Source: Ginglymostoma cirratum (Eukaryota). From it: DNA of 64,000 nt. Where the stretch lies: positions 21,251,288 through 21,315,287 of the forward strand of contig JAHRHZ010000045.1 in assembly GCA_024137785.1 (NCBI GenBank), written 5' to 3'. Position 1 is the first letter of the stretch. Each line of letters starts with the position of its first letter. The notes under the pieces are model-generated. The model was not told the origin of the DNA. It did no database searches and worked only from the letters and a program-made list of their open reading frames with translations. Positions 561 through 62,243 of this stretch are shown here, one piece after another. The position numbers and the translations under genes are program-made.

Positions 561-573
561 TATGGATGTTATT

Positions 574-1970: not shown

Positions 1971-2475
1971 AGAAGGTTGTAAAATCAGTTAAGCAGCAGC
2001 AACCTGATAATGGTAACCCTCAGGGTATTGCCAATAGGCAGAGTGAAACAGCAAGGAATTTTTTAAAACTGTGACAATACATTTTCAATTAATGGAAATG
2101 TAGGCGTTTTAATCACCTTTAAATCACAAAAGCTCCATTTCACAGTTCCTCTTGTTTTTTGACAAATGCATTTGCCATTTCCTTTTGATAGCTGTGTTGA
2201 CAATTATAATAGACTCAATGTGAATGAGCTTATGCACCTTTTATGCACATTCATGTCTACTTTTAACAAGTCGAACACACACACTTTACCTCTCCCAAAG
2301 GGCAATTCAACTCTACCGAAAGGTGTCCTGGCACTATATCCGAAGGGATACCCTACCTTTCCAAAAAGATATTCTCGATATAAAAACAAATCCACAAACT
2401 TCAGACCCTCTAAACTAGATCTAATTTGTGCAAGTGGCTTTTCACACACCTGGGTCACTGCAGAGAATAGAGAAT

Positions 2476-2553
2476 CTGAGATAATAAGGTGTAGAGCTGG
2501 ATGAACACAGCAGGCCACGCAGCATCAGAGAAGCAGGAAAGCTGACGCTATCT
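2476..2553 (-). mobile_element. 78-bp Neptune pLTR mini-insertion
   Basis: Matches the end of the element at 19292; flanked by CAGAGAATAGAGAAT (2461-2475) and CAGAGAGTAGAGAAT (2554-2568). Confidence 0.8.
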
Positions 2554-3125
2554 CAGAGAGTAGAGAATGTTGTGTTTGGGCTGGGGTGGGTAGGGTTAAT
2601 CTTCTGAGTTTTGGGCTCCTTTGCCACTTTCACAATGATGAAGAGATTCTCTTTCATTTCAAAGATCCAGGTCTATGTTTCAAAGATATTTAATTGGCTG
2701 GAACGTACTTTGGAATATCCTGAGGTCATGAAAGCTCTAAAAAAAAGTACAAGTCTATATTTTTCTATTGTATGGTTGCTAATTACTGACTAACTTGAAA
2801 TTGACAACAATAGCAAGTGTGCAATTTAACACTGTGCTTCACTCATGATAGTGGGTGCTGATAGCCAGATGTAAGTCCCTCAACCCATAGACCAAATTAC
2901 AATAATTAAAATACAGTTTATTTCTGATATTAACAATGTATCTCAAGAACAAGAAACCCTTTAATCTTTACTATTACACTACAAACACACCGAGAGCTGA
3001 TTCAATTCAGGATAATATAAAGTTGAATTAAGTTTGTTGATGCTAATTGATGTTGCTGAGAAAAAAACTGGATATAGCTGAGCCAGAATCTAATAAACAG
3101 AAATGATGCAGCTGACTGGAGTTGT

Positions 3126-3158
3126 AGCTCTAACATTTTAACAGCTCTAACATTTTAA
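3126..3158. repeat. Tandem duplication, 17-bp period
   Basis: agctctaacattttaa-c-agctctaacattttaa. Confidence 0.9.
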
Positions 3159-3159
3159 A

Positions 3160-4030: not shown

Positions 4031-4304
4031 AGAGACAAAAATTCAATCAAAAGGAGAGTGACATTGAAGGCTAGTTTATCACTCAGTAACCATGGTAAGC
4101 ATCAACAAAAAAACGTGAACACTACTCAGATATATTTAAAACTGATCAACGTTGACATTGCTGAAGATTGTCTTGTTTCTTCAAGCAAGCCTTCCAAGAC
4201 TAACAATGCTACAATTAAGGCTGTCCTATTTTGCACTCTATCAGTCCTGCCTTTTCATTCCTTTTCCTGCGCCCACGTCCTTCCTCAAAACCTATTACAT
4301 TTCT

Positions 4305-4610
4305 AGAATAAAACAAAGAACTACAGATGCTGGAAATCTGAAACAAAAAACGTAAAATGCCAGAGAAACTCAGCAGGTCTGGCTACTTGTGTAGTGACCC
4401 TTTGTCAATGGACTCGAAATTCTAACTTTTTTTTCCTCCACTGATGCTGCCAGACCTACTGAGTTTCTCCAGAACTCTTTCTATTACATTACTAACCTTT
4501 TTCCACAATTCTGAATTAAAGGTAACTGATATGAAACGTTAGCTCTGATTCCCCTCTTCACAGATGTTATTCGATCTGCTGAGAACTCTCTGTATTTTGT
4601 TTTCGTTTTT
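4305..4610. mobile_element. PLE pLTR-like mini-elements (family B): one inverted pair plus one decayed copy
   Basis: gagaaactcagcaggtctggc is followed by its reverse complement gatgctgccagacctactgagtttctc; a second copy lies at 4510-4610. Confidence 0.7.
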
Positions 4611-4619
4611 TAAATAGAT

Positions 4620-4850: not shown

Positions 4851-6274
4851 TCTAAAAAAGAGTGCCAGTTGGTTTCAAACACATTGGAGTATGAAGTTGG
4901 TTTTAAACTTTGACGTGTCTTTCTTTTAAAAATAACAATTCATCTTAAGAAGATTTGGTCCAAGTGAGGAAAACAACAAGTAGCGGCCTCTCTAGGTGGG
5001 TGGCATTTTTTTTTGACGATCGGTTAACTGTTAAATTGTTTAAAGGCTATGATGCATTTCGCAAAACGTTTTGGCATCTTAAATGGATTCAGTAAGGTGG
5101 ATTCACACAAGAGTTTTCAGTTTTTACACAAAATGTTTTTAGATTGAACAACCCCCCCCCCCCATATGTTTTCGTTGCAAACATTTTTATCTTCATACAG
5201 GCAAATTTTAGAAATAAACACCCCTACAGCTTTCGTGCTGACAATTCAAAACAATAAGGGGAATGAGTGTTCTGTCGAGAATGCTCAATTTTGTATTTCA
5301 GTCTGGAGGAATCCCAGTTTGTTTTTTCCGTCTCACTTGCCTGTTTTTAAAATTTTCTTTGCTTTTTTAAAAAATCTTGTGTGTTTCTGCTGTGCTCCAC
5401 CCTCTTACAAAATTTCCCTTTTGATTATATTTTCCACCTTAACCACTCATACCTTCCCTTGACCCTTTTCACTTGCTCAAAACTTGATGCACTTTTTTCC
5501 TTGTCCTACTCTGGTCGGAAACATCTGAGATGTTTACGTGGTTTTGCTCTGCATATGTTTTGTCAGGCCTGTTGTATTTCCAGCATTTTCTGTTATTTCA
5601 AATTTCTGCCATCTGCAGTATTTTTTCTTCGTTTGAGAGACAGGAAATAATTCGATGCATGCAGCTCGTTTTTACTTATGATGTAATGTGAACTATGTTG
5701 CAACTTAAATCTTAATGGAAATTTTAGAAATTAATGCTGACCACAAATATTTAAGTAAATGTTTGTATATTTGGATGCAGAAACATGACCTATTAAACCA
5801 CAGATCGGAGTTGCCTACGATTGCTTCTGTTTCAAGTTTGTTGTATTATTAACTTGAAATTCTCATTTTTGTTTCTAAATTCCTTAATGTCATTGCTTCA
5901 ACTTCCATGCTGTTCCGACTCTGACTTCTGTGCACCGTCTTCTGTCTTTGCCCAACCGTTGGTGAATTGCCTTCAGTCCTAAGCTGTAGAGATTTCTACT
6001 TCTAACTTTGTGCTTTTTGAGATGCTTATTAAATCTTCCACCTCCTCTTTCAAGTGCACCTCATGATGTTTTTGTTGTGCTGATTCTGATTCTATGAGGG
6101 AACGCCTTAGGATATTTTCTGATGCTTAAAAATATTATGTAAATGCTAATTGTTGTTGTAGCCGTGAAGGTGAGAACAGTGAGGCTGCAGATCCAAAAAA
6201 AGTCCAGAAGTTAAATAATGTCACATAAGACTTGATTAATTGAATACCATAGATGATTTTATTGATATTTTCTT

Positions 6275-6369
6275 ATCAACCTGTTTGGAGTGGTCATTAC
6301 ACATCTCTGGAGCAGATGGGACTTGAACCTAGGCCTCCTGGCTCAGAGGTAGCACTGCACCACAAGAGC
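6275..6369 (-). mobile_element. Short tRNA-derived SINE
   Basis: Reverse strand has A-box-like TGTGGTGCAGTG and B box GGTTCAAGTCCC (6318-6329); related copies near 16755-16830, 43255-43345 and 63113-63165. Confidence 0.7.
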
Positions 6370-9900: not shown

Positions 9901-12900
9901 GACAGCAGTAACTTCTGTATGGTCACATTGGAGCACTTATGTTGACTTCCGTGCTTAAGTCTTTCGGTGTAAGTTTTGAATTCACAACGTTCTGCAACCT
10001 GCAGTGATGTGCAACGGTCAATATACTCCCTTTCTCTTTGTTTTTGAAAGCATAAGTAAGAGGGATTTCATAATCTTCTAATTCACTCACCAGTAATCCA
10101 AAAGTCGCCTGCAACCAGCTTTAATTGGAAATTCTAACGTGGTGGCATTTCCTTTTCCTAATGAGTCAGTCAATCATTAACTCTTCCCTGAAAATTAGGG
10201 AGAGAAAAAAATACAGGATTTCAATATTAAAGCTGCAACATAAGGATGATTTAAAAACAAGCAAGTGATAACATATCTTCTGACTCCACTGGGAGATCCA
10301 TTATTGGATTTAAATATATAAGCCAGTGGTACCAGCAGACGATGGTCTCACGATTGTGACCACTGTGTGAGGGGAAATAGATGCTTCTGTGCAGTGACTG
10401 AAAGAAGGTGAATATGGGATTTTCACATGTATGATATTGCTATCAGATGATTGTCATGATTTTGAATCCTGTCACAGTCAGATTATGTCACCATCAAGTT
10501 CAACTTCATGAAACCAAATCATGTTTCTGCTCAGTAGTTGAGTGCTGAAATTTCCTGATGTGGAGATGCCGGTGTTAGACTGGGGTGGACAAAGTCAGAA
10601 GTCACATGACACCAGGTATTGGTCCTTTCAGAACACTTTTTACCAGATGAAGGAGTAGCACTCCAAAAACTTGTGATTTTAAGTAAACCTGTTGGGCTAT
10701 CACCTGGTGGCATGTAACTTCTGACTGAATTTTCCTGTTCAAGGTGGCCATAAACATCAGCTGGTTGAGCAGGGTTGTTTGGCCTTACTGCCTGTCTCGC
10801 TTCTTGAGTTATGTCCATGTTCTTGGAGTAGACTTGTGTGGTGTCCATGCTCAAAGCCTTCAATGGCTGTTGGCCAATTCAGGAGTTAGTGTGCATTGTT
10901 ATTTTTCAACTGTTTTTAATTCGAATTTTGTGTTTTTTAATTTTATACTTCTGGTTTCCGCGACAGAGCCCCTTTTTAAGGGACTAACACCTTTTTTTAA
11001 TTTCTATATAATTTGATCTAATTTGGCTCAGACAGCAGCTCCCACTATCACTGTGTATGCTTGTAACAACAACATAATTAAATATTCTACTTTTAAGGTT
11101 TTGGAGTAGATTTGTATCTTGGGTTGTGGGTGTTGAGCCCTCTACGTGCTAAAAAGACTTAAACAAACTGGACAGTTCAACAAAACAGACTTCTTAAGAA
11201 CGAAACCCGAAGGAACCAACACACCCCGATTCTACGGCCTCCTGAAAGTGCACAAGCTGGAAGTACCCCTTAGATCCATAGTCTCCCTACCAGGCACTCC
11301 ATCACACAGATTAGCCAAGGAACTACAAAGGAGACTCGGGCATCGAGTTAACAAGTCACCCCACTCCATCCACTCAGCCCAAGAATTCCTCAACTCCATC
11401 AAAGACATAAAGATAGACGACGAGGAGACCATGATATCGTTTGATGTCACTGCCCTATTTATATCAATAGACATACCACTAGCAAGGGAAAGAATCACAG
11501 CACGACTGGAACAACGGTAAGGCCCCAGTGAAACCATCTCCACAGACAACCTGCTCCAACTACTGGACCTATGCTTCACCACCCACTTCACTTTCAACGG
11601 CCAAACATACGAACAAATCAACGGGACACCCATGGGATCACCTATCTCCGGACTCATAGCAGAAGCAGTGATGCAAAGACTAGAAGGGACTGCCCTTTGG
11701 CTAATCCAACCAAAACGGACCAAACTCGCGGAGGCGCACAAACTCATGAACAACACCATCACTGGAATAAAATTCACCAGAGAGGAGGAGAAGAACAAAC
11801 GGCTCTCATTCCTGGACGTCATGGTAGAGCACAAGACAAATGGGGAACTCCAAACGAAAGTACACAAAAAAAAGCCACACACACAGACCAGGTACTGAAC
11901 TTCAACAGTAACCATCCCAACACACACAAACGAAGCTGCGTGCGAACACTATTTAAACGGGCAGCAATACAGAACTACGCCAAGAGGAAGAATGTTACCT
12001 CTTCCAAGTATTCAAGGATAATGGATATCCAAAAAACTGGGTCAGAAGATGCCTATACGAACAACATCAGGAAGATACTGCAAGCCCTGACACACTCATC
12101 ATACCACCCTACATCAGGAACACATCGGAAATCACCACAAGACTTCTACGACCGCTGGGCGTCAGAGTGGCACACAAGCCCACATCAACCCTACGACAAC
12201 TGCTCACCCGAACTAAAGACCCATTCCTGCCATGGCCAGGACCAGGGTCATCTACAAGATCCGCTGCAGAGACCGTGAGAAACACTACATTGGACAAACA
12301 GGAAGGAAACTAACAACAAGGGTACACGAACACCAACTGGCTACAAAAAGACCACAACCAATACTCATTCATCTCAATCCACATGGATAAGGAGAACCAC
12401 CAATTCGACTGGGGCAACACCAAAATCCTGGGACAAGCTAAGCAGAGACAGGCACGGGAATTCCTAGAAGCCTGGTACTCCTCGAAGCATACTATTAATA
12501 AACATATTGAACTCGTCCCCATATACACTCTGCTATGAAGGAAAACCTGAAGTGAGGCAATCCAGCTCAACAGACTCCAGAGTTTAAAAACCAGGTGGGA
12601 AAACACACTGATGCTTCATTGGAGGCTGCACTGATGATGTTACCCAGCAGGGTAATGAAACGTCTGCGGAACAACAAACCAGCTCGGCGAGCCAACCGAC
12701 CTCAAAGTTCTACTTTTTTTTAGTAAAAGATGAATAGGACTGTTGATTCTTTACATAGTGTTCTGTTTCAATGTTTGTCCATTCTACAAATGCGTTTTGA
12801 GATCTGATTATTCATATCATAATGTTACTTAGAAAACAAATGTTACATTATGGTCACTGTTATTTCATAAAGAATCAGGTATGATGTGATGAAACTGGTC

Positions 12901-15900
12901 CGTTTCCTGTTTCAGTAAAATCAATTTATATTGTTGCTCAGTGATGACATTTAGCGAGCAAATTTGTTTTCTTTGTGCGAAGAGTAAGAAGTCACGTAAT
13001 TATTAAAGATGTACTTCTGGGACGTATACTTTGAAGCTAGATTGGATCTTGGGTGTTTGTGTAGGTTAAGTGAGTGAACAAATCTGACAAATTATGTATA
13101 ATGTAGGCAAAGGTGAAATTATCCATTTTGGCACAAAATAAAAAGAAATTATTATCTAAATGATGAAAGATTACAGAATTATGAGGGCCCAAGTACATGA
13201 ATCTCAAAATCTAATAGGCAGGTACAGCGAGTAAGTAGGAAAGCTAATAGAATGTTATTGTTTATTGTGAGAATTGAAATCAAAAATTCAGAGGTTACAC
13301 TTGAGTCATACAGGGCACAGGTAAGACCTTATCTGGAGTGGTGTTCTAAGTTCTTCCCTCAGTCTTTTTTGTAAATTCAGCATTTTTTCTTGTAAGGGGA
13401 AATCATTTTCATGATAATGGGCAAAGCGATCTTTGGTTCATTTCAATGTTTTTTTTGAAAGGACTTTAATTGGATTCTGCTATCTCCTGCGCAATGAATG
13501 TTTATCATAAGTTGAGCATCAAAGTAGTTTGGTAAATAAAAGTTAATTTTCAGATGAGAGCTTTTTTTTAATCGCCTGGAAGTATTGTACTGAAGTTATT
13601 TGCTGGTTTCTATCAATAAGGTAGTACTTATAAGAAAATAAATATTAGTTGCTCGGTGGTCTAGGTGCAGATTTTTATGTGGTCAGGCCATTAGCCATTA
13701 TAATTCCAAGCATTGGAATTCTCTTTAAACAGAAAATGGAATTAGGTTTTTGAATAGATTTGTAGCTTGGGTTGTGGATGGTTGGCTCGCCGAGCTGGTT
13801 TGTTGTTTTTCCGCAGATGTTTCATTACCCTGCTGGGTAACGTCATTAGTGCAGCCTCCGATGAAGCGCCATTGTGTTTGCCTGCCTATTATGAAAATGG
13901 AATAGCAAGAATCGTACAGCATGGAAACAGGCCCTTTGGTCCAACTTGTTCACACTGACCAGACATCTCAATCTGATCTAATCCCATTTAGCAGCATTTG
14001 TCCCATATCCCTCTGAAACCCTTCCTATTCAGGTACCCATCCAGATGCCTTTTAATGTTGTAATTGTACCTGTCTCCCCCACGTCACACTTTCCTACATT
14101 AATTACTTCCTGCTCCTGCATGCTAACCTTGTGTTTCATGCACGAGAACACTCAATCCTGCTGTGTTGCACCTTTAATGGAGTCTTTCCATTTTTGTTCT
14201 GTCACTGGCCAAACCTATGTAGTCCTGTTGCCTAGAGTTGCCGCTGGCCACTGCAATGCTTAAGTCAAGGGAGTATGTAGAGTGGGGCAAATAGTTTCAA
14301 AGTACCCTGTCTATTTCCCTTTTTTTTTTCCATTCATCCCAATTGCACTCACTTCCTGGGATAGCCTGTTGAAAGGTTGTGTTAGACTTGAAATGACAGT
14401 GACAACGGGGCTCAAATATTATAAATGGATGGAAAAAGCCTATAAAAAAGATCTTTTGAGTACCGGCAGAATGCCTGGTCTCCTGACTTGGGGGAACTGG
14501 GTTGGTGTTGCAGGTTGTTTGTAACTGAACTTGTAAAGGCAGGGAAAGAGAAACCTAGCCCCAAATGTTGAAACAGTCTTTCTCGTCTGTTAGGGCTTCA
14601 TATTTATATTCCTTGTAATGTGATGATACATTAGGAGTACTTGCAGATTTTTATTCTGTTCCTGTTGTAGTTAATATATTGTTTTTGCTTCTTTACAGTT
14701 TCCTCATGTGATTGTGAATTGTGTGGAATGCTTTTCTTCAAGGATGCTTTTTGAACAAATACTTAATGAGCTGCAGGGTCATTCGCTATCCCCCAAGAAT
14801 GAATACTCTTCTTGTCTACAGTGTAACACACTCAATGAATTTGTTCTACTTTATAAGCAAGTGGTCCACAAACAGAATTTGCGCAATCAAACTGTCTACA
14901 TTGTAAGTAAATGATTATGAAATTACTCAACTTCTTTTAAAAATTAGCATTTCGGGGGGTCACATAACAAAAAGGAATAAATCTGATGGCTTTATCATAT
15001 TATTGGCACAGTAGGGTGGCTCTGTGCTGTACTTTTGAGGTTAGCTTGGTTGTGATTCAAAATTACTAATCTTATTAAAAGACATGTTTCCTTTTTGCAC
15101 CCATATTGCCCCTTGCCAGATGTGGTTTCATGCTCTCCTAATATGCATTCCTCATGTTTTCCTTTTTCTGAGTGTTGTAGGCAATAATACCATGGAGCTA
15201 ATCAGAAGGCAGTTCAAATTTTCCCTTACTTGTTGCCCATAATTCTAATTCAATCAAGGATTTTGCAATACTGATAAGGAGTCAAAGTGCTGGTTTATCA
15301 TTTGCTTTCCTCATGATCAGTCTTGCTGAAGCTGTTGGTGTTATTGAATCTGTCTGCCAGAGAGCTAACTCAGTGCAGATCCCCAGAATTGAATCAGAGA
15401 CTTGGTTGATCTTTGCAAATCAGTTTATTACTGAATTGTTGAGAAATTCTATATTCACTGTTTTTGGCAGCGGATGGTTTCACATCAAAGAATAGAGAAT
15501 AATTTGATGTATCAAAAAAGGGTGAGAAAGGTTATTAATGTTCACTACCCCTCCAACTTATTGAAAAGCCAACTCTTAGGAGAGGCCGGAAATGAGAGGG
15601 GAGGCAGAAATCTTTAGCCAACTTTTACTTAAAGTGGTGAGGAATTTTCCAAACTCTGAAACAAATAATTGAAGTTCAGGATGACATGGTTAGTTCAACT
15701 TGTCACTAAACGAGCCATTTCTTCTGTTAGATGCTTGTAAGGAAGGGGATGCTTCCTGATATCTAACCGCAATGTTTGTTTCTGTATTTTTTTTTTAAAC
15801 ATATCCCTTTGGTTCTATTTGCTTCTAGTTGTTCTATCCATTTCAGGTAAAACTTGTATCTAAAAACTAACATCTGTAATTCTGCCTCTGAGCCTATGTT

Positions 15901-18900: not shown

Positions 18901-21900
18901 GCCAATTGGGTGTGAAAATGGTGTTCAATATGTGCACTTCAATGGTGAATCGTGCAAGATGCCATATTGGTGAAGATAATGGGAAGTGCATAATGAATTC
19001 TCATTGGAAGTATAAAGGAGAGTGGCACATCTTAAAAGATTAAATTATCTTCATGTTAGGCCCCTACTCCTGGACTCCAGGAGTACTCCACACATGGGTT
19101 CTTGGAATCCACTGTGTAGAGTAACGAACCAATGAAGCTGGTTGCGCAAAGATCAGTCTCAGAATCTCCTGGCCTTTTACCCAAGTTAAACAATCAGTAC
19201 TTGTGAAAGTATGACTACAAGAAAAGGCAGTCCTGTACTGATGACCATGCAAGTTGAGACAGCAGGAAGAGTCAGGCTAGGTAAGAAAAGGGATAACAAG
19301 GTGTGGAGCTGGATGAACACAGCGGGCCAAGCAGCATCATAGGAGCAGGAAAGCTTGACGTTTCGGGCCTAGACCCTTCTTCAGAAATGGGGGAGGGGAA
19401 GGGGGTTCTGAAATAAATAGGGAGAGAGGGGGAGGCGGATAGAGGAGAAGATAGGTGGAGAGGAGACAGACCGGTCAAAAAGGCGGGGATGGAGCCAGTA
19501 AAGGTGAGTGTAGGTGGGGAGGTAGGGAGGAGATAGGTCAGTCCAGGGAGGACGGACAGGTCAAGGGGGCGGGATGAGGTTAGTAGGCAGGAGCTGGGGG
19601 TGGGGCTTGAGGTGGGAGGAGGGGATAGGTGAGAGGAAGGACAGGTTAGGGAGTCGGGGACGAGCTGGGCTGGTTTTGGGATGCGGTAGGGGGAGGGGAG
19701 ATTTTGAAGCTTGTGAAGTCCACATTGATACCATTGGGCTGCAGGGTTCCCAAGTGAAATATGATTCGCTGTTCCTGCAACCTTCAGGTAGCATTGTTAT
19801 GGCACTGCAGGAGGCCCAGGATGGACATGTCTGCGGAAAGGGAGGGGGAGTTGTAATGGTTCGCGACTGGGAGGTGCAGTTGTTTAGGTGTTCTGCAAAG
19901 CGGTCCGCAAGCCTCCACTTGGTTTCCCCGATGTAGAGGAGGCCACAACGGGAACAGCGGATGCAGTATACCACATTAGTAGATGTGTAGGTGAACATCT
20001 GCCTGATGTGGAAAGTCTTCTTGGGGCCTGGGATGGGGGTGAAAGGTTGCAGGAACGGCAACTCATATTCCGCTTGGGAACCCTGTAGCCCAATGGTATC
20101 AATGTGGACTTCACAAGCTTCAAAATCTCTCTTTCCTTCCTACCTACCACCGCATCCCAAAACCAGCCCAGCTTGTCCCTTCCTCCCACCTATCCCCTCC
20201 TCCCACCTCAAGCCCCACCCCCAGCTCCTACCTACCAACCTCATCCCACCCCCTTGACCTGTCCGTCCTCCCTGGACTGACCTATCTCCTCCCTACCCCC
20301 CACCTACACTCACCTTTACTGGCTCCATCCCCGCCTCTTTGACCGGTCTGTCTCCTCTCCACCTATCTTCTCCTCCTATCCATCTTCTATCAGCCTCCCC
20401 CTGTCTCCCAATTTATTTCAGAACCCCCTTCCCCTCCCCCATTTCTGAAGAAGGGTCTAGGCCCGAAACATCAAGTTTTCCTGCTTTTATGATGCTGCTT
20501 GGCCTGCTGTGTTCATCCAGCTCTACGCCTTGTTATCTCAGGAACTGCAGATGCTGGAGAATCTACTACCTCGGTAAGAAAAGGACTGGATGTATAGCAG
20601 GCATCTGAAAACAGACAGAAGGAAGAATGACAGTGAAGAGAAATCAGTTAACATTTCGGGTTGAGCGACCCTTCCTCACTCGACCCATGACATTAACTCT
20701 GCTTTCTCTCCACGGATGCTGCCGAACCTGTTGAGCTTTTCCAGCAATTTGTTTTTGTTTCTGATTTACAGCATCTGCAGTTCTTTTTTTCTTTTTATGA
20801 AGAATGACAGTACTTTGCAGAACAGCACTGAACAGAGAAGTGCTTACAGCCCTTCTTGTACTGTGGCTATTTAGAGTCGATTAAGGGGCAGAAAGGTCTT
20901 GAATCAGCATGCACTGCTGAATCGCTGTCAGTGCTGCAATTTAGCAGCTCTAGCTCTAGCTTTCTTAAATTCTGCATAGCTAAACATGTTAAACAGCAGG
21001 GAAGTCTAACTCTGCTACTTGCCTGTCCTTTCTCAGAATAATTAAATTGGTTGAATTCTTGTAGCTATGTCAACTCTTGTTTTTTTCAATAGATAAAAAT
21101 GTAAAAGTCTGCAAGGAGTTGGGGGTAGGGTGTAGGTTGTGCAGGTGCTATAGGTTTTTTTTTGTGGATTTCAAAGCACTGCATAAACTAATTGCTCCTG
21201 GGCATGGAGGATATAGGAAGGCGTCTTTTTGATATTGAACAGAATTTAGGTGTTGGACGTGACTTGGGAGAATCTGCGTAGACTATGCAGAGCAGAAGGA
21301 GGGCCTTCAGGGAGAAGATCTGTTCAAGATTTTTTTTGCGATCTGATATCCAGAGCCATGATCGCAGGAGTCTGAACTTCCATTGCAACACTTGAATGAT
21401 GTTTGTGCTGGAACAGAAGTAGCAATATTTGTCATCAGATAATGCATTGTTGTTTACTCCATGGGAATCCCTAATGTCAAACAAAAACAAAACTGCATGG
21501 ACACTTGGCCTCGACCTAGGGTCTAGCACTATTTTAAAAAAAAAACCTAGCCCAGTCAACCCCACAAAGTCTCCCTTGCTGTCAGTTGTGTACTTGTCTA
21601 TCACACGGGTCTTCCCCTTTTTGACATGTCAAACAGGAGCCTAACATTACTATTCTCCAGCCAAAAGCCTTGATTCTTCAGTCACCATCCCTGAATATGT
21701 CCTGTCTCTGTAAAACCACAGAGCAACATTTGCAGCATGATGTTATCAGCAGCATTGTTTTCCACAATTTGCCACCTCAGTGCTAAGCCTGCTCTTTGTT
21801 CTGTGGCTGCCATGGAGACAGGACGTCAATCTTTGTTCAATAGGACTGTAAAAGAGCATGTCAGAAGTGGCACCAGCACCTAGTGGGGAGGTGCAAACAT

Positions 21901-48900: not shown

Positions 48901-51900
48901 CATTAGTCAATATTAGCAAAAGGGCACTTTATTTTTAATTTCCTCTTGACCAACATGTTGCCTTTGACCATTATGGACTTACTGAGCTAAGTAGTAGATA
49001 GTAAATGGAGGGCCATAACAGCCGGCTTTATTTTTTTCCCTCAGATACACTGGTTCTATATTACAACATTATATATGCCAGTAAGTGTGTCGAAGGACTG
49101 AAGGAAGTGTTATAATATGTTGCAAACTGTGCTGCTGCTGTTTATGAAATCTAAATTGCATATTGGAGTATTTAGTTTTATTATTGACATTAAAATGTAT
49201 AGCTATAAATTTTTCTTAACATCTTGAGAATGGATGAAGGAGTAGAGACATGGTGATACCATTAAGACAATTGTTTACAGTTGTAAACTTTGCTCTTGAG
49301 GTTGTCCAAATTTAAAAAAGATTCAATTTTAGACTCTAGTAAGCTGGTTCACGTCATTGAGGTTGAGAGCATATCCTTAATGTCAGGGCAGCACTATTGT
49401 GACATCCCGACCTGAATAGCTCTGCAGAGCCAGTTATTTCAGGTGGTTAAAAATATGGTGCTTAGTGGTGCATTTATTTGCCTTTTGTGTGATATCGTGG
49501 AATTACTGAGCCTTGATAGAATGGAATATTCTTCTGATGTCTTTTTGAATGTTGTTCCAACAATACTGAAGATGACAAAGTAGTCTGCTTGCTTGGAACC
49601 ACCTTTTGATCCTTTGCCAGTGATACATAGGTGGTAGCATGTGTACCACCTACAAGATGCACTGCAATAACTTGGAAGGAACCTTTGACAACACCTTCCA
49701 TATCTACAATGCCTACTGTCTGGAAGGGCAAAGCAGCAGATGCATGGGAACACCATTGTTTGCTCCAAGCCACACAGTAAATTGACTTCAAACTGTATTG
49801 CCATCCCTTCATTGGGTCAAGTGCCTGGATCTCCCTCCCTAACAGCATTGTGACGTTTCTACACCCAAGGAATGTGGCAGTTCATGAAAGCAGGTCACCA
49901 TCACCTTCTGCAAGACAATTAGGGATGGGCAATAAACATTAGCCCAGCCAGAGATTCTCTCATCCCATCAGCAAATCAAATAAAATCTTTAAAAAAGAAT
50001 GTTAGTTGGGAGTTTTTTTTAGTAGACCAGGAAGGTTTACTTCCTTTTTCATAAGCACGACATGAAGCTTCATGATATTATGTTCATGTTATGGAATAGG
50101 ATTTGAATTCACAACTGCTGACTTTGAAGGTGAACATGCTATCACTGAACCAAGTCTGACACCTTAATATTTGGTTTGTGTTTCAGATCAAAATCATGCA
50201 TTTTGTTTCAAAGGGATTGTGTAATCTGTAGGGATTACCCTTGAGTTTGCAGGATTTGTGTTGGTAGGCTATTAGTACTTAATAATGAAATCTCTTGTTT
50301 TAATTGGAAATACTACTTTAATCTGATAGTATCTTGTGAATTAAGCAACATTGTGCATTTACTCTAAAATAGTTACAATCATAAACTTATGTTGATGTGT
50401 TGAAAAAAACATTTAAAGTTTGAGAAACAATTTTTTTTGTTGCATATATATAACTACCTTGAGTACTTAAGTGCTAAAACAGAAAATTGCTGCCGAAACT
50501 CAGCAGATGCTGCCATACCTTTTGAGTTTTACCAGCAATTTCTGTTTCTGTTTCAGATCTCCAGCATCTGTAATTCTTTGTTTTCTTACAATGTTTTAAG
50601 TTTTTTTTTTCTCCATGTTTTGTTTTCCAGCATCATGGGAAAATTAAGAAAACCTCATTCCTGAAAAAACATGAAAAGGTGATTATTTATATTGTTATTT
50701 TCTAAATCCCTGTTGGATCAATGTCTGTGTTGCAACTCGTATTACTCCTGAAATGGCACCAGTTTTACAGATGCTAACATTTACTAACTTGTGGATTATT
50801 CCAAATTTAATAATAATTTTAAATGTTACACTGTACACATCATAACATGGCTGGGGAAAATGCTTTCTTTAAAGAAAACTGATCAGTTGTGTGATGAAAT
50901 TGCACATTTTCTCTTACATTTCACATTGGTTTTAACATTGACTGGAATTGCTTTGTTTTACATCATGACCTATGCGGGGAAAATTCATTAGGTTTCCGCA
51001 AAGCTCTATTTAGGCAGTAATGCAAATTTTAGCATCAAGATATTTTGTTTGCAGTAGAACTAAAGGGATAGTATGGATCTTTCATACTTGGCTTTTTGGG
51101 TTATATTTCATTGTTGTTTGTTTTGGTGCTTGTAGTAAGGAGCTGCTTTCTTTTTCGCCCCCTTCTAATGTTGACCTATCCCCCATGAGGGAGATGTGGT
51201 TTGATATTTTTGGAGTTTAAATTCATCTGCGTTTCCAAGAAGCTGTCCTGACTGGGATATCCTGTTAATTGAGCGTAGTTACTGTATCCAACCTGTCTGT
51301 GTAGTTCAGTTTCACTTCATATTATCAAGTTATCATATTACTTAATAAATTGTGTAATGTTTGCACGTAATATTTATTACATTCATTAAAAATTACAATA
51401 GACTTTTGACTGGAAGTTCTGTGGTGAGAAACATATCTCCTGACTTCCCTGTCCACCGTCTGGAAGACAAGTCAGAAATATAGTGGAATTACAAGTACCT
51501 GGAATGGGAGCTGCTCCAACAATACTGAAGAAGCTCAGCACCATCCGTGACTAAAATAGTTTGCTTAATTGAAAACTGATCCATCCCCTTAAACATTCAC
51601 TCCTTCCATCAACACCCAAGGCCGTGTGTGCCATCTTACAAGATGCATTGCTGCAGCTCACCTAGTTTCCTTTGACAGCAGCTTCCAAAACTTACGCCTC
51701 TACACCCAGCAACAGAAGAGCAGCAGTGCAATGCAGCAACTCCACCTGCAAGTTCCCCAAGAAGCCATGTGCCTCATGATTTGGAATTATATATTACTGT
51801 TCCCTCAATATTTCTGGACAAAAATTCTGGAGCTCTCTCACTAACAGCTGTGTGGGTAGACCTACATCACATGGGCTGCAATAATTTGAGCAAGTGGCTC

Positions 51901-54756: not shown

Positions 54757-56410
54757 TCTGATTTGATTTATTATTTTCTCATGTTCCGAGATACAGTGAA
54801 AAGTATTGTTTTGCATACTAACCAGACAAATCATAATTTACAGAAGTACTTCAGAGTAAGATACTAAATAAAAACCGAAAGAACTACAGATGTTGTAAAT
54901 CAGGAACAAAAGCAGAAGTTTCTGGAAAAGCTCAGCAGGTCTGGCAGCATCTGTGAAGAAAACATCAAAGTTAACTGTTTTTGTTACGTCAAAGTAAGAG
55001 TTCAGAATGCAGAGTATAGTGTTACAGCTGCAAAGAAGGTGCAGAGAAGGATCAACTCTAATGTTTGAGAGGTCCATTCATAAGCCTGGTAACAGCAGGG
55101 AAGAAGCTGTTTTTGAATCTCTTGGTACATGTTTCCAAACTTTCGTATCTTTTGTTTGATGGAAGAGGGTGGAAGAGTGTATTAACCTGGGCGGGAATGG
55201 TCCTTAATTATGTTGGCTGCTTTCCTGAGGCAGTGGGAAGTGTAGATGTAGTCAGTGGAAGGAAGGATGGTTTTTGTGATTGATTGGACTGCGTTCAAAA
55301 CTAATTTGTTGCAGTTTTAGACCATGAGCAGTTGCCATACCAAGCTGCGATGCATCCGGATAGGATGCTTTCTATGGTGCACCTATTAATATTGGTAACA
55401 GTTATTGTGGACATGCTGAATTTCCTTAGCCTTCTGAGGAAGTAGAGGCATTTGTGTGCTTTCTTGACTGTAGAGTCGATGTGGATGGCCCAGGATGGAT
55501 TGTTGGTGATAATTACTCCTAGGAACTTGAAGCTGTCGACCACTCCCACCTCAGCACTATCGATACAGACACAGGGGCGTATCCTCCACTCCACTTCCTG
55601 AAGCAGATAACAAGTTCATTTGTTTTGCTAAAATTGAGGGAGAGAGATTGTTGTCTTTACACCATGCCACTGAGCTGTCTTTTTCTTGCACTCTGTCTCG
55701 TCGTGTTTTGAGATCCGACCCACTGTAGTGGTGTCATCAGCAAATTTGCGAATGGAATTAGAGCTGAATTTGGCTACGTAGACCTGTATAGTAGGTGGCT
55801 GAGTACGCAGCCTTGAGGGGCCATGGTGTTGAGGATTATTGTGGAGAAGATGTTGTCACCCTATTCCTACCGATTGCAGCCTGCGGGCCAGGAAGTTGAG
55901 GATCCAATTGCAGGCTGCGGGGAGCAGAGTCCTAGGTTTCTGAGTTTATAGATGGATTTGGCAGGAATTATGGTATTGAAGGTGAGCTAAAGTCAGTAAA
56001 TAAGGGTTTGACATAGGTGTTCTCGTTATCCAGATGTTCCAGGGATCAGTGTAGGGCCAGGGAGATGGTGTCTGCTGTGGAACTATTGTGACGGTCGGCG
56101 AATTGTGGTGGATCAAGGCAGTCTGGAAGGTTGCAGTTGACGTGTGCCATTACTAACCTCCTGGAAGCATTTCATAATGCTGGATGTCACAACCACTGAG
56201 TAGTAATCATTGAGGTATGTTGCCTGATTTTTCTTTGGTACCGGGCTGATAGTGGCCTTCTTGAAGCAGGTAGCACTTCCCATCTTAGTAAGGAGAGGTT
56301 AAAGATGTCTGCAAATACTCCCGCCATGCAGGATCTGAGTGCACGACCAGGGACTCTATCTGGGCCAGTCGCTTTCTGGGAGTTCACTGTCAGGAAGGCT
56401 GATTTGTTTC
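54757..56410 (-). mobile_element. Rex1/Babar-clade LINE, 5'-truncated, interrupted by a family B mini-element (about 54865-54982)
   Basis: [80 protein letters not shown]. Confidence 0.88.
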
Positions 56411-56549: not shown

Positions 56550-56668
56550 GGAGTCTTCAGAACTGTTCTGAAAAAGGGTCACTGGATCAGAAATGTTGTC
56601 ATTGCTTTCTTTCCACAGATGCTGCCAGACCTGCTGAGTTTCCCCCGGAATTTCTGATTTTGTTTCAC
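56550..56668 (+). mobile_element. Family B mini-element
   Basis: cttcagaactgttctgaaaaagggtcactggatcagaaatgtt...gatgctgccagacctgctgag. Confidence 0.75.
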
Positions 56669-57039: not shown

Positions 57040-57330
57040 AAACATTCTTAAAACAAAAAAGCAATAATTTGTTTAAAGAGGACCTGAGGGGTAACTTTTT
57101 CACTTAGAGAGTGGTGCATGTATGGACCAAGCTGCCAGATGAAGTGGTGGAGGTGGGTACGCTTACAACATTTTAAAAGGCATCTGCTTGGGTATATGAA
57201 TAGGAAGGGTTTAGAGGGATATAGGCCAAATGTTGGCAAATGGGACTAAGTCAGTTTGGGATGTCTGGTCGGCATGGACGAATGGGACTGAAGGGTCAGT
57301 TTCTGTGCTGTATGATTCGAAGATTCTATT
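57040..57330 (+). mobile_element. CR1 LINE 3' end
   Basis: ggacctgaggggtaacttttt...ggactgaagggtcagtttctgtgctgtatgattc. Confidence 0.8.
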
Positions 57331-57939: not shown

Positions 57940-59480
57940 AAGTTGTTGTCATCGTTGGTGGTCCCTTGCAAATGCGGATGACTCTTCCACTCAGGGTGAG
58001 ACCGTAGTTGGCTGTACAGATCGATGCAACTACTGCAGGCTCTGTATGCTTGGGGCAGAAGGTGGTCACAGGAATGGGTAGGTGGGGCATTGGTGTGGCA
58101 GCGTGCACCTTTCGCTATTTTCACCTGGCTTCCGCTTTTTCCTCTGGCAAGCCTTGAGGTGCTCAATGCCTTCCCAGATGTTCCTCTTCCGTTGTGGACG
58201 GTCTTGGGCCTGTCATTCTCAGGTATCTGTGGGAATACTGCACTTCACCAGACAGGCCATGAAGGTATCACTGAAGTGCTTCCTCTGTCCACCTGAGGTT
58301 AGCTACCATTTTGAAGGTGGGAGTAGAGCATCTGCTTGGAAAGTCTTGTGTCAGTCATGCAGGCGACATACCCAGCCCCTCGTAGCCAGTCGAGCCTCGA
58401 TGCTGGAAACATTGGCCTGGTCAAGAGCACTGGTGTTGGAGCGTCTGTCTTCCCAGTGGATTCTCAGGATTATGCACAGGCAGCGTTGGTGGTACTGCTG
58501 CAGACAATCCATGTCTCAGAGCAGTATAGGAAGGCGGGGAACCACCGCAGCTGTAAACCACGATCTTGGTGTTGGATCTGACGTTGTCCTTAAGCACCCT
58601 TTTCCACAGGGGGCCACAGGCTGTGCTGGCATACTGGAGGTGATGCTTAATCACTTCTTTAATATCTGCTTTGGCTGACAGAACAGTCCTGAGGCATTGA
58701 AAGTGATCAACGGTCTGTAAGGCCTCCCCATGGACTTTGATGATTGTGGGTTCACTGCTCAATGCTAGGCCAAGTTGGGGTGGAGGACCTTCATCTTGCA
58801 GATATTCTGGGTGAGACCTATGCTCTCATATGCCTCTCTAGAGTGTCTGATAATGGTCTAGAATACGTCTTCTGAGATTGCAGAGAGGCAAGCGTAATCT
58901 GTGTACTGCAGCTTAATAACACTGGTTGGGATGACTTTAGTTTTAGCTTGAAAGCAGCGGAGGTTGGATAATTTCCTGCAGGTTCTGTAAGTTAGCTCCA
59001 CTCCAACAAGGTGCTTGTTGGCAGCAAGGTGAAGCATTGCAGCGAGGTAGATTGAGAATAGTGTTGGTGGCGATTGATGCAGGCCTGCTTGACACCAGAC
59101 AGGAATGAGGAATGGGTCAGCGGTGGAGCCATTTGTCATTACCATGGCTCCTATGTCATCGTTGAGCAGGTAAAGGATGATGACTAATTCCATTGCGCAA
59201 CCAAAGTGGAAAAGAATGCTCCATAATGCTTCCCGATTGACTATGTCAAAGGCCTTTGTTAGGTCGAAGAAGGCGGGTAGGCTCTTTTCTCTGCATTTCT
59301 CCTGCATCTGTTGCCTGGTGAAAATCATTTCCCTCGTGCCCCTCTGTGGTCAAAAGCCACACTGTGATTCCAGGAGGAGTTCTTCAGCCACAGGGAGGAG
59401 ACAGTTGAGGAGGTCCTTGACTGTGACTTTTCCAATGGTCAACAGTCGACTGTAGTTACCACAGTTGGGCTTGTTTCCTT
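57940..59480 (-). mobile_element. RTE-clade LINE, 5'-truncated and decayed
   Basis: MIFTRQQMQEKCREK, FFDLTKAFDIVNREALW, PTLFSIYLAAML, VDHFQCL..VLS; short (CAA/CGA)-like tail near 57942. Confidence 0.88.
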
Positions 59481-60655
59481 TTATTCTAAAACCATACCTG
59501 GTATTACAATAACATGCAATTTTCAAGATCTGAAATAGTTTTATTACTTTAAATTTAAGCTTTATATGAAGATTCCCCCATCTATCCTTTTGGTTTCCTT
59601 ATCACTGTTTTAATTGTTCAGTTTTATTTGTAAGTTTCTTGGTTTTCTTATGCTACTTCTCTTGGTAATCTTTGAATGCATTCAAATGCATTTTTTTTTA
59701 CACTAATGACTTTTTTATTGTTTTCTGTCTCGCTTTTCACATTCCCTTCCATATAATGCTTTTTTTTTAACTCTTCAAAACCATTGGGAAAAGCAGCAGA
59801 AAAGAAATTTGATTTCTGGCTTGGTGGAAAGCGACTAAGCCAGCAAACTCTCAAACCACTCCTGGAACTATCCTGGAGTTTAGAATTGTGTGAGTGGTTG
59901 TTGACAGCCACATGCTGATGTATTTCCGGTTGAGGATTGTTTTGAGTTGCTCAGGTGAAGAGACAAGGTTGCCTCATAATTTCTTATTAAAGAGCTGCAA
60001 TTAGTGACATGACAAACCACTTTCCCCCAACCTACCTACCTACCTACATGCTGTGTTAGTAGAAATCAGAATTTAGTAATTTAGGATGTGTGAAAAAACA
60101 TAGTTGGCATCATAAATTATATCTTTATAGAATAATGGATTCCTCTCACCTGGTGGATTAATCCCATTACAGAGACTTGTTCTCTGGACATGAAATGAGA
60201 GATCAGTTGTTTTAAGGACAGAAGTTCTCGGCTGAGAATAATTACCAGCTTCCTGAACTCCCATTGAAATGCTGTTGGTCAGCAAATGAAAAATAAGCAA
60301 TTTCTCTAAACAGCTGTCTTCTGTTTGTTTAGGCTGTTTGAAATAGGGAGCAATATGAATTTGGGTGTAGAGTTGACTATTTTTGGTGTACATAAAGTCT
60401 TTCTTTTCAAGTTTTAAATGTTGCATTAAACAGTTCTAACACTGAGTGGCACCATTGTGCTATGATTTGCAGAGCGTTATTCTCCAAGTGGTTTGTGGAA
60501 AAGAAATTTATTGACTAGCAATCCAGGAGATTACTTTGGAATTACATCCTCTGGGAGTCCATGCTACTAACCTTAGTGTGTTTTCATAATCAGTTGATAG
60601 CTCCTATCCTGCTAGCAAAGGTATCTAACATATAAAATAAGTCTCTGTTCCCCTA

Positions 60656-60767
60656 ACATAAACAAAACTGCTGGGAAACCTCAGCAGGTCTGACAGCATC
60701 TGTGGCGTAAAAATCAGAGTGAACATTTCGGATCCGATGACCCTTCCTCAGAACTGAAGTGTGTTTT
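60656..60767 (-). mobile_element. Family B mini-element with a hammerhead-like core
   Basis: Minus strand CTGAGGA-A-GGGTC-atcg-GATCC-GAAA-TG-TT; perfect 15-bp TSD GTCTCTGTTCCCCTA at 60641-60655 and 60768-60782. Confidence 0.85.
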
Positions 60768-61867
60768 GTCTCTGTTCCCCTACCCTGTCCTTTCTTTGTT
60801 TGGAATTGTAGTAAAGAGGCAGAATTTTAACTGATGAATCTGTGCAATAGGCAATTTGGAACTGGGCTTGTGGAACAGGTTTTGCCAGGCTCTAACTCAG
60901 CCATGACAGTAGCATCTTTTCTCTGGGTTTCCTGCCCATTTGGAGCAAATGGCCTGATCATGACCCACATCTGACTGCAATTCTCTTTCAATTAAGTTGA
61001 ATTTATTTGGATATTTGGACCTTGTATGAAAAGTCTGTGACGACAAAAATTCTTCACGTAAAGAATGTTAAAACACTGATGACTGGCAAAAGGATCGTAG
61101 TAGGAATAGAGCATTTGGTCACTTCAGCCTTCTGTGCCATTCATTGTGTCCATGGCTGTTTACCTACCTCATCTCTATTTTCCATTCTGCTCCTATGTTC
61201 AAAAGGAGACATTACCACACAGTTGAATGACTGATGAAACCAAAAGTCTGTCTGTGTTCAAAATTTGTGCGCAATCTAATAGTTTAAATGTCAGTACAGT
61301 CTGGAATTTTTAGATTTGAAATTTACTTAGTCCTTATATAACCTTAAACTCCATGATATATTCTTTCATAGACTCATTGTCCACCTTCTTAAGTTAGCCA
61401 GTGTTGTTCAAGCTTTGTAGGCTTCTAACAAGTTATCGTTTTTTGTAAATTTTGTCCATAGTTGTATTGGAATCTACAATTTCTCCTAAGTATCCAGGTC
61501 ACATATCTAGTCCTGGATATACTCTATTTCTGATTTTTAATTCTTGTTGGTGAGGATAAAACCATAGCCATACTTTGCCTCTTGGTTAGAGAAAGGACCT
61601 GAATCTATACCTGCGCTTTATTCTTCCACTGCTTGTGTGGTTCCAGTTCTGAAAACACTGATGAGTAATCAGAATTTGTGACCCTGCAGCATGACTTGGC
61701 CGTTTACCTTTGAAAAGCAACTGGGAGCTTTGCTTCTGTCAGAAGCAAGGATTACCTAGTGCATTCTTTGTCTACCAACTGATGTTAGCCCTCAGCTACT
61801 ATGTTTAACAGAGCAATATCCAATATTGAATTTGGCAGCAAGAAGATTTGAGATTTATAAGGGGTAG

Positions 61868-62243
61868 CAAGAACTGCAGATGCAGGAGTCAGAGACTCTG
61901 GAGTTTGTCCAGTCTGGAGCTGGAGGAACACAGCTGGCCAGAATACATCTGAGGAGCAGGAAAGTTGGAAGGGTCACCGGACCTGAAATGTTAACTCTGA
62001 TTTTTTGTGTTCTTCACAGATGCTGCCAGACCTGCTGAACTTTTCCAGCAATTTCTATTTTTGTTCTTGATTTACAGCGTCCACAGTTCTTATAGTTTTT
62101 ATTCAGTTTTTATTAGGAATGTTGATGTTTTGGGTCAGGATACTTCTTCAGAATTGGGTTGTTTCTGAAGAAGGGTCCCGACCCGAAATGTCAACTTTCC
62201 TGCTCCTCTGCTGCCTGGCCTGCTGTGTTCCTCCAGCTCCACC
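61868..62243. mobile_element. Neptune-pLTR inverted mini-element with a nested family B element (61968-62114)
   Basis: Arms tggagctggaggaacacagc and gctgtgttcctccagctcca; insert flanked by AGGAAAGTTG (61958-61967) and AGGAATGTTG (62115-62124). Confidence 0.75.

Follow-up and report, generated by a model that had tools for sequence, protein, structure and literature searches.

This 64-kb stretch of shark DNA, referred to as the window, contains many short inserts with hammerhead-like motifs, and the question arises whether they form a mobile class of their own or are remains of Penelope-type elements (PLEs). The initial annotation regarded them as a three-family population inserted by PLE machinery, possibly a distinct non-autonomous, ribozyme-bearing class. 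We found 20 PLE-derived loci in the window, and 16 of the 20 are shorter than 400 bp. Short inserts (minis) occur 16 times beside three ORF-bearing PLEs, and were assigned to family B (10 loci), family A (four), family C (one) and a Poseidon-type family P (one). Where no strand is given below, none is assigned.

The ORF-bearing copies serve as reference for the minis. The element at 11095..12707 (+) is frameshifted and 5'-truncated, with an inverted short tail arm at 11096-11140, an intact hammerhead core at 12631 and a target site duplication (TSD) of 10 bp at 11085/12708; it is termed Poseidon-like because the Cys-rich linker is absent (criterion from PMC3846280). A Neptune-like copy at 19292..20570 consists of arms of 751 and about 530 nt with a GIY-YIG fragment, hammerheads at 19384 (−) and 20445 (+), and a TSD at 19280/20571 with a 12-bp exact core. 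The third copy, 40360..42525 (−), has an inverted 450-nt arm with tail at 42075-42525 and a 14-bp TSD at 40346/42526 that is derived from a family-B target. Its ORF at 40730-42004 encodes 424 amino acids with RT thumb, Cys-rich linker and GIY-YIG, and the product is 90% identical to a protein of Rhincodon typus (P0004). A carpet shark is the probable host. The translation shows CxCxxCxxC between RT and GIY-YIG. As a Cys-rich motif in this position is the criterion for the Neptune clade (PMC3846280), this PLE appears to be Neptune-like, by motif rather than by tree.

Minis and ORF copies have a common anatomy. The 3' ends point outward and fall on two fixed sites about 33-36 nt apart, which lie, relative to the hammerhead cleavage site, at +66/+97 in A, about +67/+99..109 in B and +54/about +90 in C; two sites are also found in P. 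The segment between both sites is the optional PLE tail of 30-40 nt. Within this one anatomy the shortest arms measure about 11 nt and the longest about 1.7 kb. The inverted-pair arrangement noted earlier is present in 10 out of 16 minis, and an inverted 5'-truncated second arm is also found in all three ORF copies.

Among the family-B minis, 4306..4480 has a left arm with tail (+18..+102) and a right arm (−20..+61), flanked by a TSD of 14 bp with one mismatch (4292-4305/4481-4494). An older arm at 4506..4608 (+) spans −35..+68 with an unbounded upstream edge, and an old arm with tail at 5527..5629 (+) spans −8..+99. At 20635..20798 the left arm (−29..+15) ends internally and the right arm (−19..+104) has the tail (TSD 20622/20799, 13 bp). 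The two-armed mini at 40238..40359, whose right part with the site-1 end continues at 42540..42574 (+), was split by the later 2.2-kb Neptune insertion and is flanked by 10 bp with one mismatch (40228/42575). Arms of +34..+63 and +19..+103 make up 50476..50597, which is without hammerhead. The mini 54862..54988 combines a left arm with tail (−3..+109) and a right arm of 11 nt at site 1 (TSD 54851/54989, 11 bp, one mismatch), 56554..56666 has an arm of −33..+69 whose 5' end carries a fold-back palindrome of 12 nt, and in 60656..60767 a left arm (−39..+67) is accompanied by a tiny site-1 right arm overlapping the TSD (60641/60768, 15 bp). The last one, 61968..62114 (+), with tail (−25..+109) and a TSD at 61958/62115 (10 bp, one mismatch), sits in the hammerhead cleavage region of an A2 element.

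This A2 element, 61863..62248, has a tail arm reaching to −35 and a site-1 arm reaching to −31, with the B insert nested inside (TSD 61853/62249, 10 bp, one mismatch). The other A2 mini, 32239..32373, joins an arm from −26 to site 1 with a tail arm (+39..+97) by a 6-nt microhomology (TSD 32227/32374, 12 bp). Single arms are found in the A1 minis 2476..2553 (−), from −5 to site 1 with a possible second arm of 6 nt (TSD 2461-2475/2554-2568, 15 bp, one mismatch), and 37525..37621 (+), −31..+66 (TSD 37511/37622, 14 bp). The family-C mini, 10558..10724, has a left arm with a 36-nt tail and a right arm that ends at site 1 and contains a degenerate minimal hammerhead with its core from 10644 (TSD 10545/10725, 13 bp, one mismatch). 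The Poseidon-type mini 13743..13892 (−) has a tail and a TSD at 13732/13893 (11 bp).

All seven TSD pairs listed previously for minis were found in place with the same length and mismatch count, as were the 10, 12 and 14 bp of the ORF copies. In a boundary-anchored search, for which the element edges were set from alignments, 15 out of 19 elements (12 of 16 minis, three of three ORF copies) reached a score of at least 8, compared to 1.6% of 3000 random position pairs. The same search found no TSD at 4506, 5527, 50476 and 56554. It added five TSDs (those starting at 4292, 13732, 40228, 54851 and 61853), three of which score just 8-9. TSD length varies between 10 and 15 bp among the 15 elements, and the proposal that minis and ORF copies share one size range is confirmed.

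The about a dozen short inserts reported earlier are genuine, while their division into three families has to be revised: A and B are 64-77% alike across the hammerhead and downstream part, and C is a single locus. By this alignment the pLTR ends of A and B are homologous sisters, and the two families are not independent. Family C comprises the two arms of one insert, and the only other candidate for a second copy in the window, 63575-63621, has E=0.19. Family A had been equated with the Neptune PLE ends, which is correct for two of four loci (2476 and 37525, with 88-91% identity to the long arm at 19 kb), whereas 32239 and 61863 form a second subfamily with 66-87% identity to the four long arms. 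The long arms are mutually 89-95% identical. The Poseidon-type mini, absent from the earlier list, matches 12593-12705 in the ORF copy 1 kb away colinearly and with 86% identity; A1, A2 and Poseidon minis alike align to ORF copies and run colinearly along the 3' end (pLTR) of elements with RT and GIY-YIG. At one diagnostic site five of five mini-A arms (four insertions) differ from four of four long arms (two insertions), which suggests that the mini-A arms derive from masters other than the two ORF copies present here.

The hammerhead fold, minimal type I and located in the pLTR, occurs with covariation in A, B, C and the Poseidon-type family. Stems I and II are 80% paired, a value reached by none of 500 shuffles and compared to 25-52% in slid controls; the row of family C is one column off in this pairing alignment, and its hammerhead was tested separately by descriptor. 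The null rate of the descriptor scan was 0-0.33 per 128 kb. Four hammerheads are intact, all within ORF-bearing copies, and none of the 16 minis has a predicted motif passing the strict descriptor. A cmscan against Rfam returned no hammerhead family at E<=5. For the minis, the term hammerhead-associated refers to decayed motifs.

As annotated before, no coding partner of B or C is visible in the window: ORFs are attached to none of 10 B loci and not to the C locus. The same holds for both A2 loci, giving 0 out of 13 in the window for B, C and A2 together. None of the minis was matched by tblastn with 264 PLE proteins at E<0.01, and a GTDB scan for a coding partner of B or C gave one chance match. 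A remnant overlooked previously lies at 213..585 (−), where a GIY-YIG C-terminus and a C/T-rich 3' UTR of a second Neptune-like family were found (tblastn 67% to P0103, E=7e-16; endonuclease HMM E=4e-8; 60-65% DNA identity to the family-A endonuclease end). It breaks off short of any hammerhead, and a protein search with it as query found nothing. This remnant is a candidate for an unlinked coding relative of family B.

These observations favor the explanation, which we consider probable, that the minis were left by ordinary, endonuclease-bearing PLEs as dead-on-arrival insertions with extreme 5' truncation, the sources being Neptune-type subfamilies A1, A2 and B, one Poseidon-type family, and C without clade label. 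Insertion by PLE machinery in independent events, as proposed, agrees with the ORF copies, which have the same TSD range, the same pair of 3' end sites and likewise inverted arms. The distinct ribozyme-bearing class was not upheld, given the lack of a shared unit or junction and of an intact hammerhead, and the one anatomy with the ORF copies. A truncated, inverted structure with the tail on one end is typical of PLEs according to the literature, and Cervera and de la Pena (2014, PMC4209133) interpreted dispersed minimal hammerheads, alone or on opposite strands, as truncated PLEs.

In a possible mechanism the GIY-YIG/RT protein would nick both target strands 10-15 nt apart, as the TSDs suggest; the anole element PAc has been shown to cleave both strands in vitro (PMC11167929). 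Reverse transcription could then start internally from each freed 3'-OH, with uncleaved PLE RNA as template and at either of two positions separated by about 33-36 nt. This was shown for PAc, and the pair of fixed 3' ends found in all four families (A, B, C and P) indicates it here. At least 17 mini arms cross the cleavage site and none demonstrably starts there, which argues for uncleaved or religated RNA as template, as reported for PAc. Synthesis would often stop early, typically just past the hammerhead, and the two cDNAs might be joined head-to-head via microhomology or fold-back, so that a short inverted insert results with the tail usually on one side only. In PAc reverse transcription starts at 111-118, yet the first 172 nt of the ORF are required (PMC11167929). 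If Neptune elements behave alike, internal initiation would leave the downstream RNA segment needed by the protein uncopied, and a monomeric mini could therefore not be its own master. The hammerhead would be a passenger that decays afterwards.

The arms provide further hints. Exactly one tail is present in 10 out of 11 scorable two-armed inserts, i.e. one arm from each site, and all 11 informative sites (from two insertions only) group the arms by insertion, pointing to a shared donor. Relative to the cleavage site, 17 out of 22 arms have their 5' end at −3 to −72 and none at −78 to −351 (constant-hazard P=4e-6, under a crude null with non-independent arms and partly hand-entered values); 11 of the 22 end at −25..−47. 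Ten B arms cross the cleavage site and none aligns past −39, which is the limit of the reference, one arm being unbounded. The earlier note had held that a continuous spread of truncation lengths without mini-specific subfamilies would mark ordinary truncated copies. Given the bimodal 5' ends and the diagnostic mini-A site, such a pattern is seen only in part.

A more tentative reading, to which we give clearly less than an even chance, is that of a systematic PLE product instead of random truncation. A protein dimer would prime both nicked strands on the same RNA, one per start site, so that each insert would receive exactly one tail and stem from a single donor. Where the bound site is the 5' pLTR/ORF junction of the mRNA, or a short pLTR-only master in the case of B and C, the cDNA would run off or stall 25-45 nt upstream of the cleavage site. 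If true, the way in which PLEs integrate would have left a very large fossil record in shark genomes, and B and C might be non-autonomous families scattered as monomers.

It is unlikely that B, C and A2 are dedicated non-autonomous derivatives, in which the Neptune protein acts in trans on a short non-coding master (one pLTR or a tandem, equipped with an own promoter and a downstream segment for binding) and the cDNA runs off at the 5' end of the master RNA near −35 to −45. This would fit the missing ORFs at the 13 loci, the clustered 5' ends including the B arms that stay within the −39 reference limit, and the site separating mini-A from long-A arms; according to the literature pLTRs suffice for mobilisation in trans, and non-autonomous PLEs are known in other organisms. 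However, no two minis in the window share an internal junction or a unit length; 5' ends and junctions vary in every copy, and the central junction is different in every two-armed insert. The Poseidon and A1 minis, with coding relatives at hand, have the same anatomy, run-off at an ordinary mRNA 5' end predicts identical clustering, and the endonuclease remnant of another Neptune-like family is present.

We regard it as rather improbable that the inverted arm arose by self-priming (fold-back), e.g. with an antisense template, a model put forward by Arkhipova et al. (2013), instead of priming at the second nick; this would be compatible with the truncated-PLE explanation. Junctions that are nearly palindromic (62158 and 54975), the perfect 12-nt fold-back at 56554 and the internal end of the 20635 left arm at +15 speak for it, and a shared donor of both arms would also be expected. 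On the other hand, the second arm does not adjoin the 5' end of the first arm in 32239, 54862, 40238 and 11096, so that simple fold-back cannot yield these, and PAc extends both strands from sense RNA in vitro.

Monomeric offspring of non-LTR retrozymes, amplifying via hammerhead-released circular RNAs, is a very improbable source. Retrozymes are pLTR-related, were found in a chondrichthyan and have monomer derivatives according to the literature, and the type I minimal fold with covariation is in line with them. The 10 TRF rows contain no hammerhead-bearing tandem, no mini has two hammerheads on one strand, none of 16 motifs is intact, the ends match two RT start sites and not the cleavage site, and the arms are inverted instead of head-to-tail. 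MITEs of a DNA transposon can be practically dismissed despite small size, hairpin potential and direct repeats at the ends: TSDs of variable length (10-15 bp) and absent terminal inverted repeats (in all 16 segments the terminal 12-mers agree at just 0-7 of their 12 positions) refute this reading, and the resemblance to MITEs noted earlier is superficial. The inserts are homologous to PLE 3' ends. A SINE origin was rejected as well (ARAGORN 0 genes, exact B box in 0 of 16 segments, non-PLE head absent).

The inserts probably belong to an already described class, namely truncated, inverted PLE ends with decayed minimal hammerheads. The class itself matters little, and its main use is as a fossil record of how PLEs insert. 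The one-tail rule, the shared donor and the 5'-end clustering bear on how PLEs form the inverted arms and the one-sided tail, and are cheaply testable with thousands of genomic copies and the PAc in-vitro assay. Inserts with clean TSDs could be presence/absence markers in sharks. Annotation may mistake such inserts for MITEs or for hairpins of miRNAs; an Rfam miRNA match below threshold lies on 4357-4475.

Among known systems, truncated or solo pLTRs of EN+ PLEs (Neptune, Penelope/Poseidon) and their minimal hammerheads (PMC4209133) likewise show 5' truncation, an inverted head-to-head arm, a 30-40 nt tail at one end and TSDs around 10 bp. Their motifs are also of type I, stem II being preceded by an unpaired base and stem III being palindromic, and occur singly or as opposite-strand pairs 100-700 bp apart. 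In contrast to these precedents, 5' ends here cluster at the upstream edge of the hammerhead, TSDs reach 15 bp and short loci predominate among the PLE-derived ones. No mention of these shark families was found in the literature searched, on which this comparison rests. Non-autonomous PLEs such as Chlamys MRC1 (PMC8557442) and the short Penelope of Heliconius (PMC6685494) are likewise non-coding with PLE-like 3' ends, but are curated families with their own consensus, whereas no fixed unit is demonstrable here. Non-LTR retrozymes (Cervera and de la Pena 2020, PMC7229834; Li, Clavereau and Pollet, bioRxiv 10.64898/2026.07.22.740005) share the non-coding, pLTR-related nature, type I hammerhead, TSDs >4 bp, chondrichthyan occurrence and monomers; they are fixed-length head-to-tail tandems with intact hammerheads, whereas the inserts here are inverted, length-variable and decayed. 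PAc, the Poseidon of Anolis carolinensis (Frangieh et al. 2024, PMC11167929), was studied in vitro. For PAc no strand difference in start site was reported, whereas 10 out of 11 two-armed inserts here have one arm from each site. PAc resembles the inserts in that its tail is delimited by a pair of internal RT start sites, that cutting and extension affect both strands, and that hammerhead cleavage is dispensable.

Self-comparison of the window yielded 16 short non-coding inserts derived from Penelope-like elements (PLEs), here called minis: 4 of family A, 10 of family B, 1 of family C and 1 of Poseidon type. Besides these, the window holds an endonuclease remnant and three PLE copies with ORFs. 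With the edges fixed by alignment, 15 of 19 elements reached a target-site duplication (TSD) score of at least 8, namely all three ORF-bearing copies and 12 of the 16 minis, compared to 1.6% of 3000 random position pairs. The minis are therefore real and independent insertions. The TSDs are 10-15 bp long, and all seven pairs named in the initial annotation are present with the lengths and mismatches given there. The boundary-anchored search found no TSD of this score at the inserts starting at 4506, 5527, 50476 and 56554. The GC content of the TSDs is 34% compared to 41% in the window, and no clear sequence motif was seen in them. At 2461-2475, 6 nt at the end of the TSD agree with the sequence by which the element would continue into its tail; at other A junctions such microhomology is about 0-3 nt.

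Two insertions are nested. The 2.2-kb Neptune copy starting at 40360 sits within a B mini (joint span 40238-42574), and the B mini at 61968 sits within the A2 mini at 61863-62248, at its hammerhead cleavage region. Two definite cases among 19 insertions are no more than expected by chance (P=0.14), and a preference for other PLE ends as targets was rejected. The 4306 insert may similarly occupy the upstream part of an older B copy at 4506.

Many inserts consist of two inverted arms, each a 5'-truncated PLE 3' end. Counted from the hammerhead cleavage site, the outer ends lie at about +66 or +97 in A arms, at about +67 or +99 to +109 in B arms, and at +54 or about +90 in C arms (offset set by hand). 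Exceptions to this two-site rule are the left arm of the 20635 insert, which ends at +15, and the 56554 insert with a 12-nt fold-back. The two end positions are those of the PLE tail, which Frangieh et al. 2024 (PMC11167929) traced to a pair of internal RT start sites in Poseidon of Anolis carolinensis (PAc). Together with the TSDs, these end positions bear out the proposal that the inserts were made independently by PLE machinery.

A head-to-head two-armed structure is found in 10 of 16 minis and in all three ORF-bearing copies. The position of the arm junction differs in every copy, and several junctions have 1-6 nt overlaps or near-palindromes. The number of tails could be scored in 11 of the 19 elements, five being single-armed and three unscorable (2476, 20635, 56554), and exactly one tail occurs in 10 of these 11 two-armed elements (P=0.006, fair coin). 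Whether the arm ending at the nearer, untailed site reaches further 5' than the tailed arm was also considered; this was so in 7 of 10 cases (P=0.17, not significant). In the two long Neptune copies both arms of one insertion group together at 11 of 11 informative sites, which argues for one donor per event, while later gene conversion would have the same appearance. The arms of the 20635-20798 insert apparently belong to different B subtypes (two positions and a 2-nt gap). This could be due either to the use of two templates, contrary to the one-donor pattern, or to mere decay. At 20542-20564, about 23 nt within the tail of the right arm of the 19 kb element (19292-20570) are in inverted orientation.

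Taken together we consider it likely that the minis are truncated two-armed copies of ordinary PLEs. The most telling case, overlooked in the initial inventory, is the Poseidon-type mini at 13743-13892, which is flanked by an 11-bp TSD of its own. It is colinear with the 3' end of the Poseidon-like copy with an ORF that lies 1 kb from it, at 86% identity. Family A had been described as identical in type to the ends of the Neptune copies. This holds for two A minis, which are 88-91% identical to the long arm of the 19 kb copy (long arms being 89-95% identical to each other), but not for the other two A loci, which form a second subfamily, A2. The division into three separate families needs qualification as well, as A and B are homologous (64-77% identity over the aligned parts) and C is one insert only and not a population. 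A second C copy at 63575-63621 (E=0.19) was not accepted. A lone 33-nt fragment at 32819-32851 resembles the A/B tail. In the 3' UTR of the left arm of the 40 kb copy (40360-42525), dense substitutions to G/C relative to three other copies occur at 40625-40665, possibly a local sequencing or assembly artefact.

The main alternative, which we regard as unlikely, is that B, C and A2 stem from dedicated non-autonomous masters, even so a known kind of element. In its favor, at one diagnostic site all five mini-A arms are distinct from all four long arms, although these stem from only 4 and 2 insertions, respectively. The 5' ends are also bimodal. Of the 22 arms that extend across the cleavage site, 17 have their 5' end at -3 to -72 (11 of the 22 at -25 to -47) and five reach further, with no end falling at -78 to -351. 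The B reference extends only to -39, and one of the B arms is unbounded. The data reject a constant-hazard null (P=4e-6 for all arms pooled, P=0.001 when only A is considered), although this null is crude, the arms are not independent and some values were entered by hand. Such bimodality is predicted alike by run-off at the mRNA 5' end, by stalling or fold-back at the hammerhead and by a short master, and the clustering therefore leaves truncation or a short master undecided. The continuous spread of truncation lengths that the initial annotation had associated with ordinary truncated copies is seen in so far as the 5' ends vary by copy, but they are bimodal. Hammerhead cleavage was rejected as their origin: at most one arm (54862, ambiguous junction) could end there, and the others run through. 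A spliced template was likewise rejected; in D. virilis, helix I marks the end of the intron (PMC4209133), and the B arms, inspected by eye, retain bases upstream of helix I and have no exon-1 signature.

Dedicated masters would also agree with the negative partner searches. None of the B, C and A2 loci in the window is joined to an ORF, tblastn of 123 and then 264 PLE proteins against the window gave no match on any mini at E<0.01, and an endonuclease HMM in six frames of the window found no remnant adjoining any B or C mini. This confirms that no coding partner of B or C is visible there. We presume that B-like ends occur downstream of Neptune ORFs in carpet-shark sequence. The remnant at 213-585 (minus strand) combines a Neptune-like GIY-YIG C-terminus with a 3' UTR rich in pyrimidines, both from a family that is not A, is broken off before the hammerhead, and is a possible coding relative of family B; its part 427-582, used as protein query for longer proteins, gave three candidates, none significant. 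The Stegostoma protein P0005 extends across a 3' UTR of A type and on into the hammerhead region, a link for A only. A 21-base B motif matched one GTDB locus (L001) with nothing alike outside the motif and was dismissed as chance; a literature text search for the motif letters returned nothing related. The ORF at 40730-42004 encodes 424 aa with a GIY-YIG domain. Its product shares 90% identity with a protein of Rhincodon typus and 86% with one of Stegostoma tigrinum, which points to a carpet shark as the probable host. It has a Cys-rich motif between RT and endonuclease, a Neptune mark (PMC3846280). The element at 11095-12707 is without this motif, and we call it Poseidon-like for that reason.

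The distinct class of mini elements proposed initially is not supported, as the copies share no unit or junction, the anatomy is uniform across arms from 11 nt to 1.7 kb, none of the 10 TRF rows of the window is a hammerhead-bearing tandem, and the minis have no tRNA gene, B box or TIRs. Terminal repeats with a fixed 2-9 bp TSD, named at the outset as counter-evidence, were likewise not found, given the lack of TIRs and the longer TSDs. As truncated copies, the minis may be unable to spread further. PAc RNA needs the first 172 nt of the ORF, yet RT starts at 111-118 (PMC11167929), and if Neptune works alike, a mini would be without the RNA segment needed for recopying.

A relaxed minimal type I hammerhead descriptor detected four intact motifs in the window, all within ORF-bearing copies. 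When one or two core mismatches were allowed, further motifs were detected in the Poseidon mini, in family C and in the 40 kb copy's left arm; the null is 0-0.33 per 128 kb. Across 14 aligned motifs, among which the C row is shifted by one column, pairing in stems I and II amounts to 80%, and 21 changes are two-sided. Slid controls gave 25-52%, and none of 500 shuffles reached this pairing, which is not a probability because the aligned rows are related. The hammerhead fold is real, family C included. The description of the minis as hammerhead-associated thus holds for the fold, but none of the 16 passes the strict descriptor. An Rfam scan of the window gave no hammerhead family at E<=5, and six sub-threshold matches were taken as chance. 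A sub-threshold MIR2118_2 match at 4357-4475 (28.5 bits compared to a gathering score of 120) is explained by the hairpin that a two-armed B mini forms. The same two stem II substitutions occur in two separate A-type copies (37538-37542 and 62138-62142).

Among neighboring repeats, a long APE and RT LINE remnant lies at 26850-30470 (minus strand; Pfam RVT_1, Exo_endo_phos), with an 87-89 bp tandem repeat upstream of it (30646-30956, TRF). Further RT remnants are located at 25.2, 36.3 and 58.9 kb. A dispersed family (13909-14086, 21923-22079 and 57075-57318; 74-79% alike, not PLE-like) directly adjoins the Poseidon mini and is probably a LINE or SINE 3' end.

In the literature searched, which included few subscription journals, no publication was found on these shark families or on PLE twin priming; the families could be listed in the tables of Li et al. 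The value of the present inserts lies in mechanistic regularities that are amenable to a genome-wide count. Cervera and de la Pena 2014 reported thousands of dispersed minimal hammerheads per genome, ascribed to truncated PLEs, and opposite-strand hammerhead pairs 100-700 bp apart (PMC4209133). Arkhipova et al. 2013 (PMC3846280) described solo and inverted pLTRs (PLE terminal repeats), TSDs of 8-10 bp and mobilisation in trans, together with a model of self-priming; the biochemistry of PAc was described by Frangieh et al. 2024 (PMC11167929). According to Craig et al. 2021, PLE copies may be truncated at the 5' end or inverted, the tail is often confined to one end, and Chlamys has non-autonomous elements (PMC8557442); see also PMC7229834, PMC6765202, PMC2377424 and PMC6685494. 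Li et al. 2026 describe tandem retrozymes and monomers derived from pLTRs, one chondrichthyan included (bioRxiv 10.64898/2026.07.22.740005).
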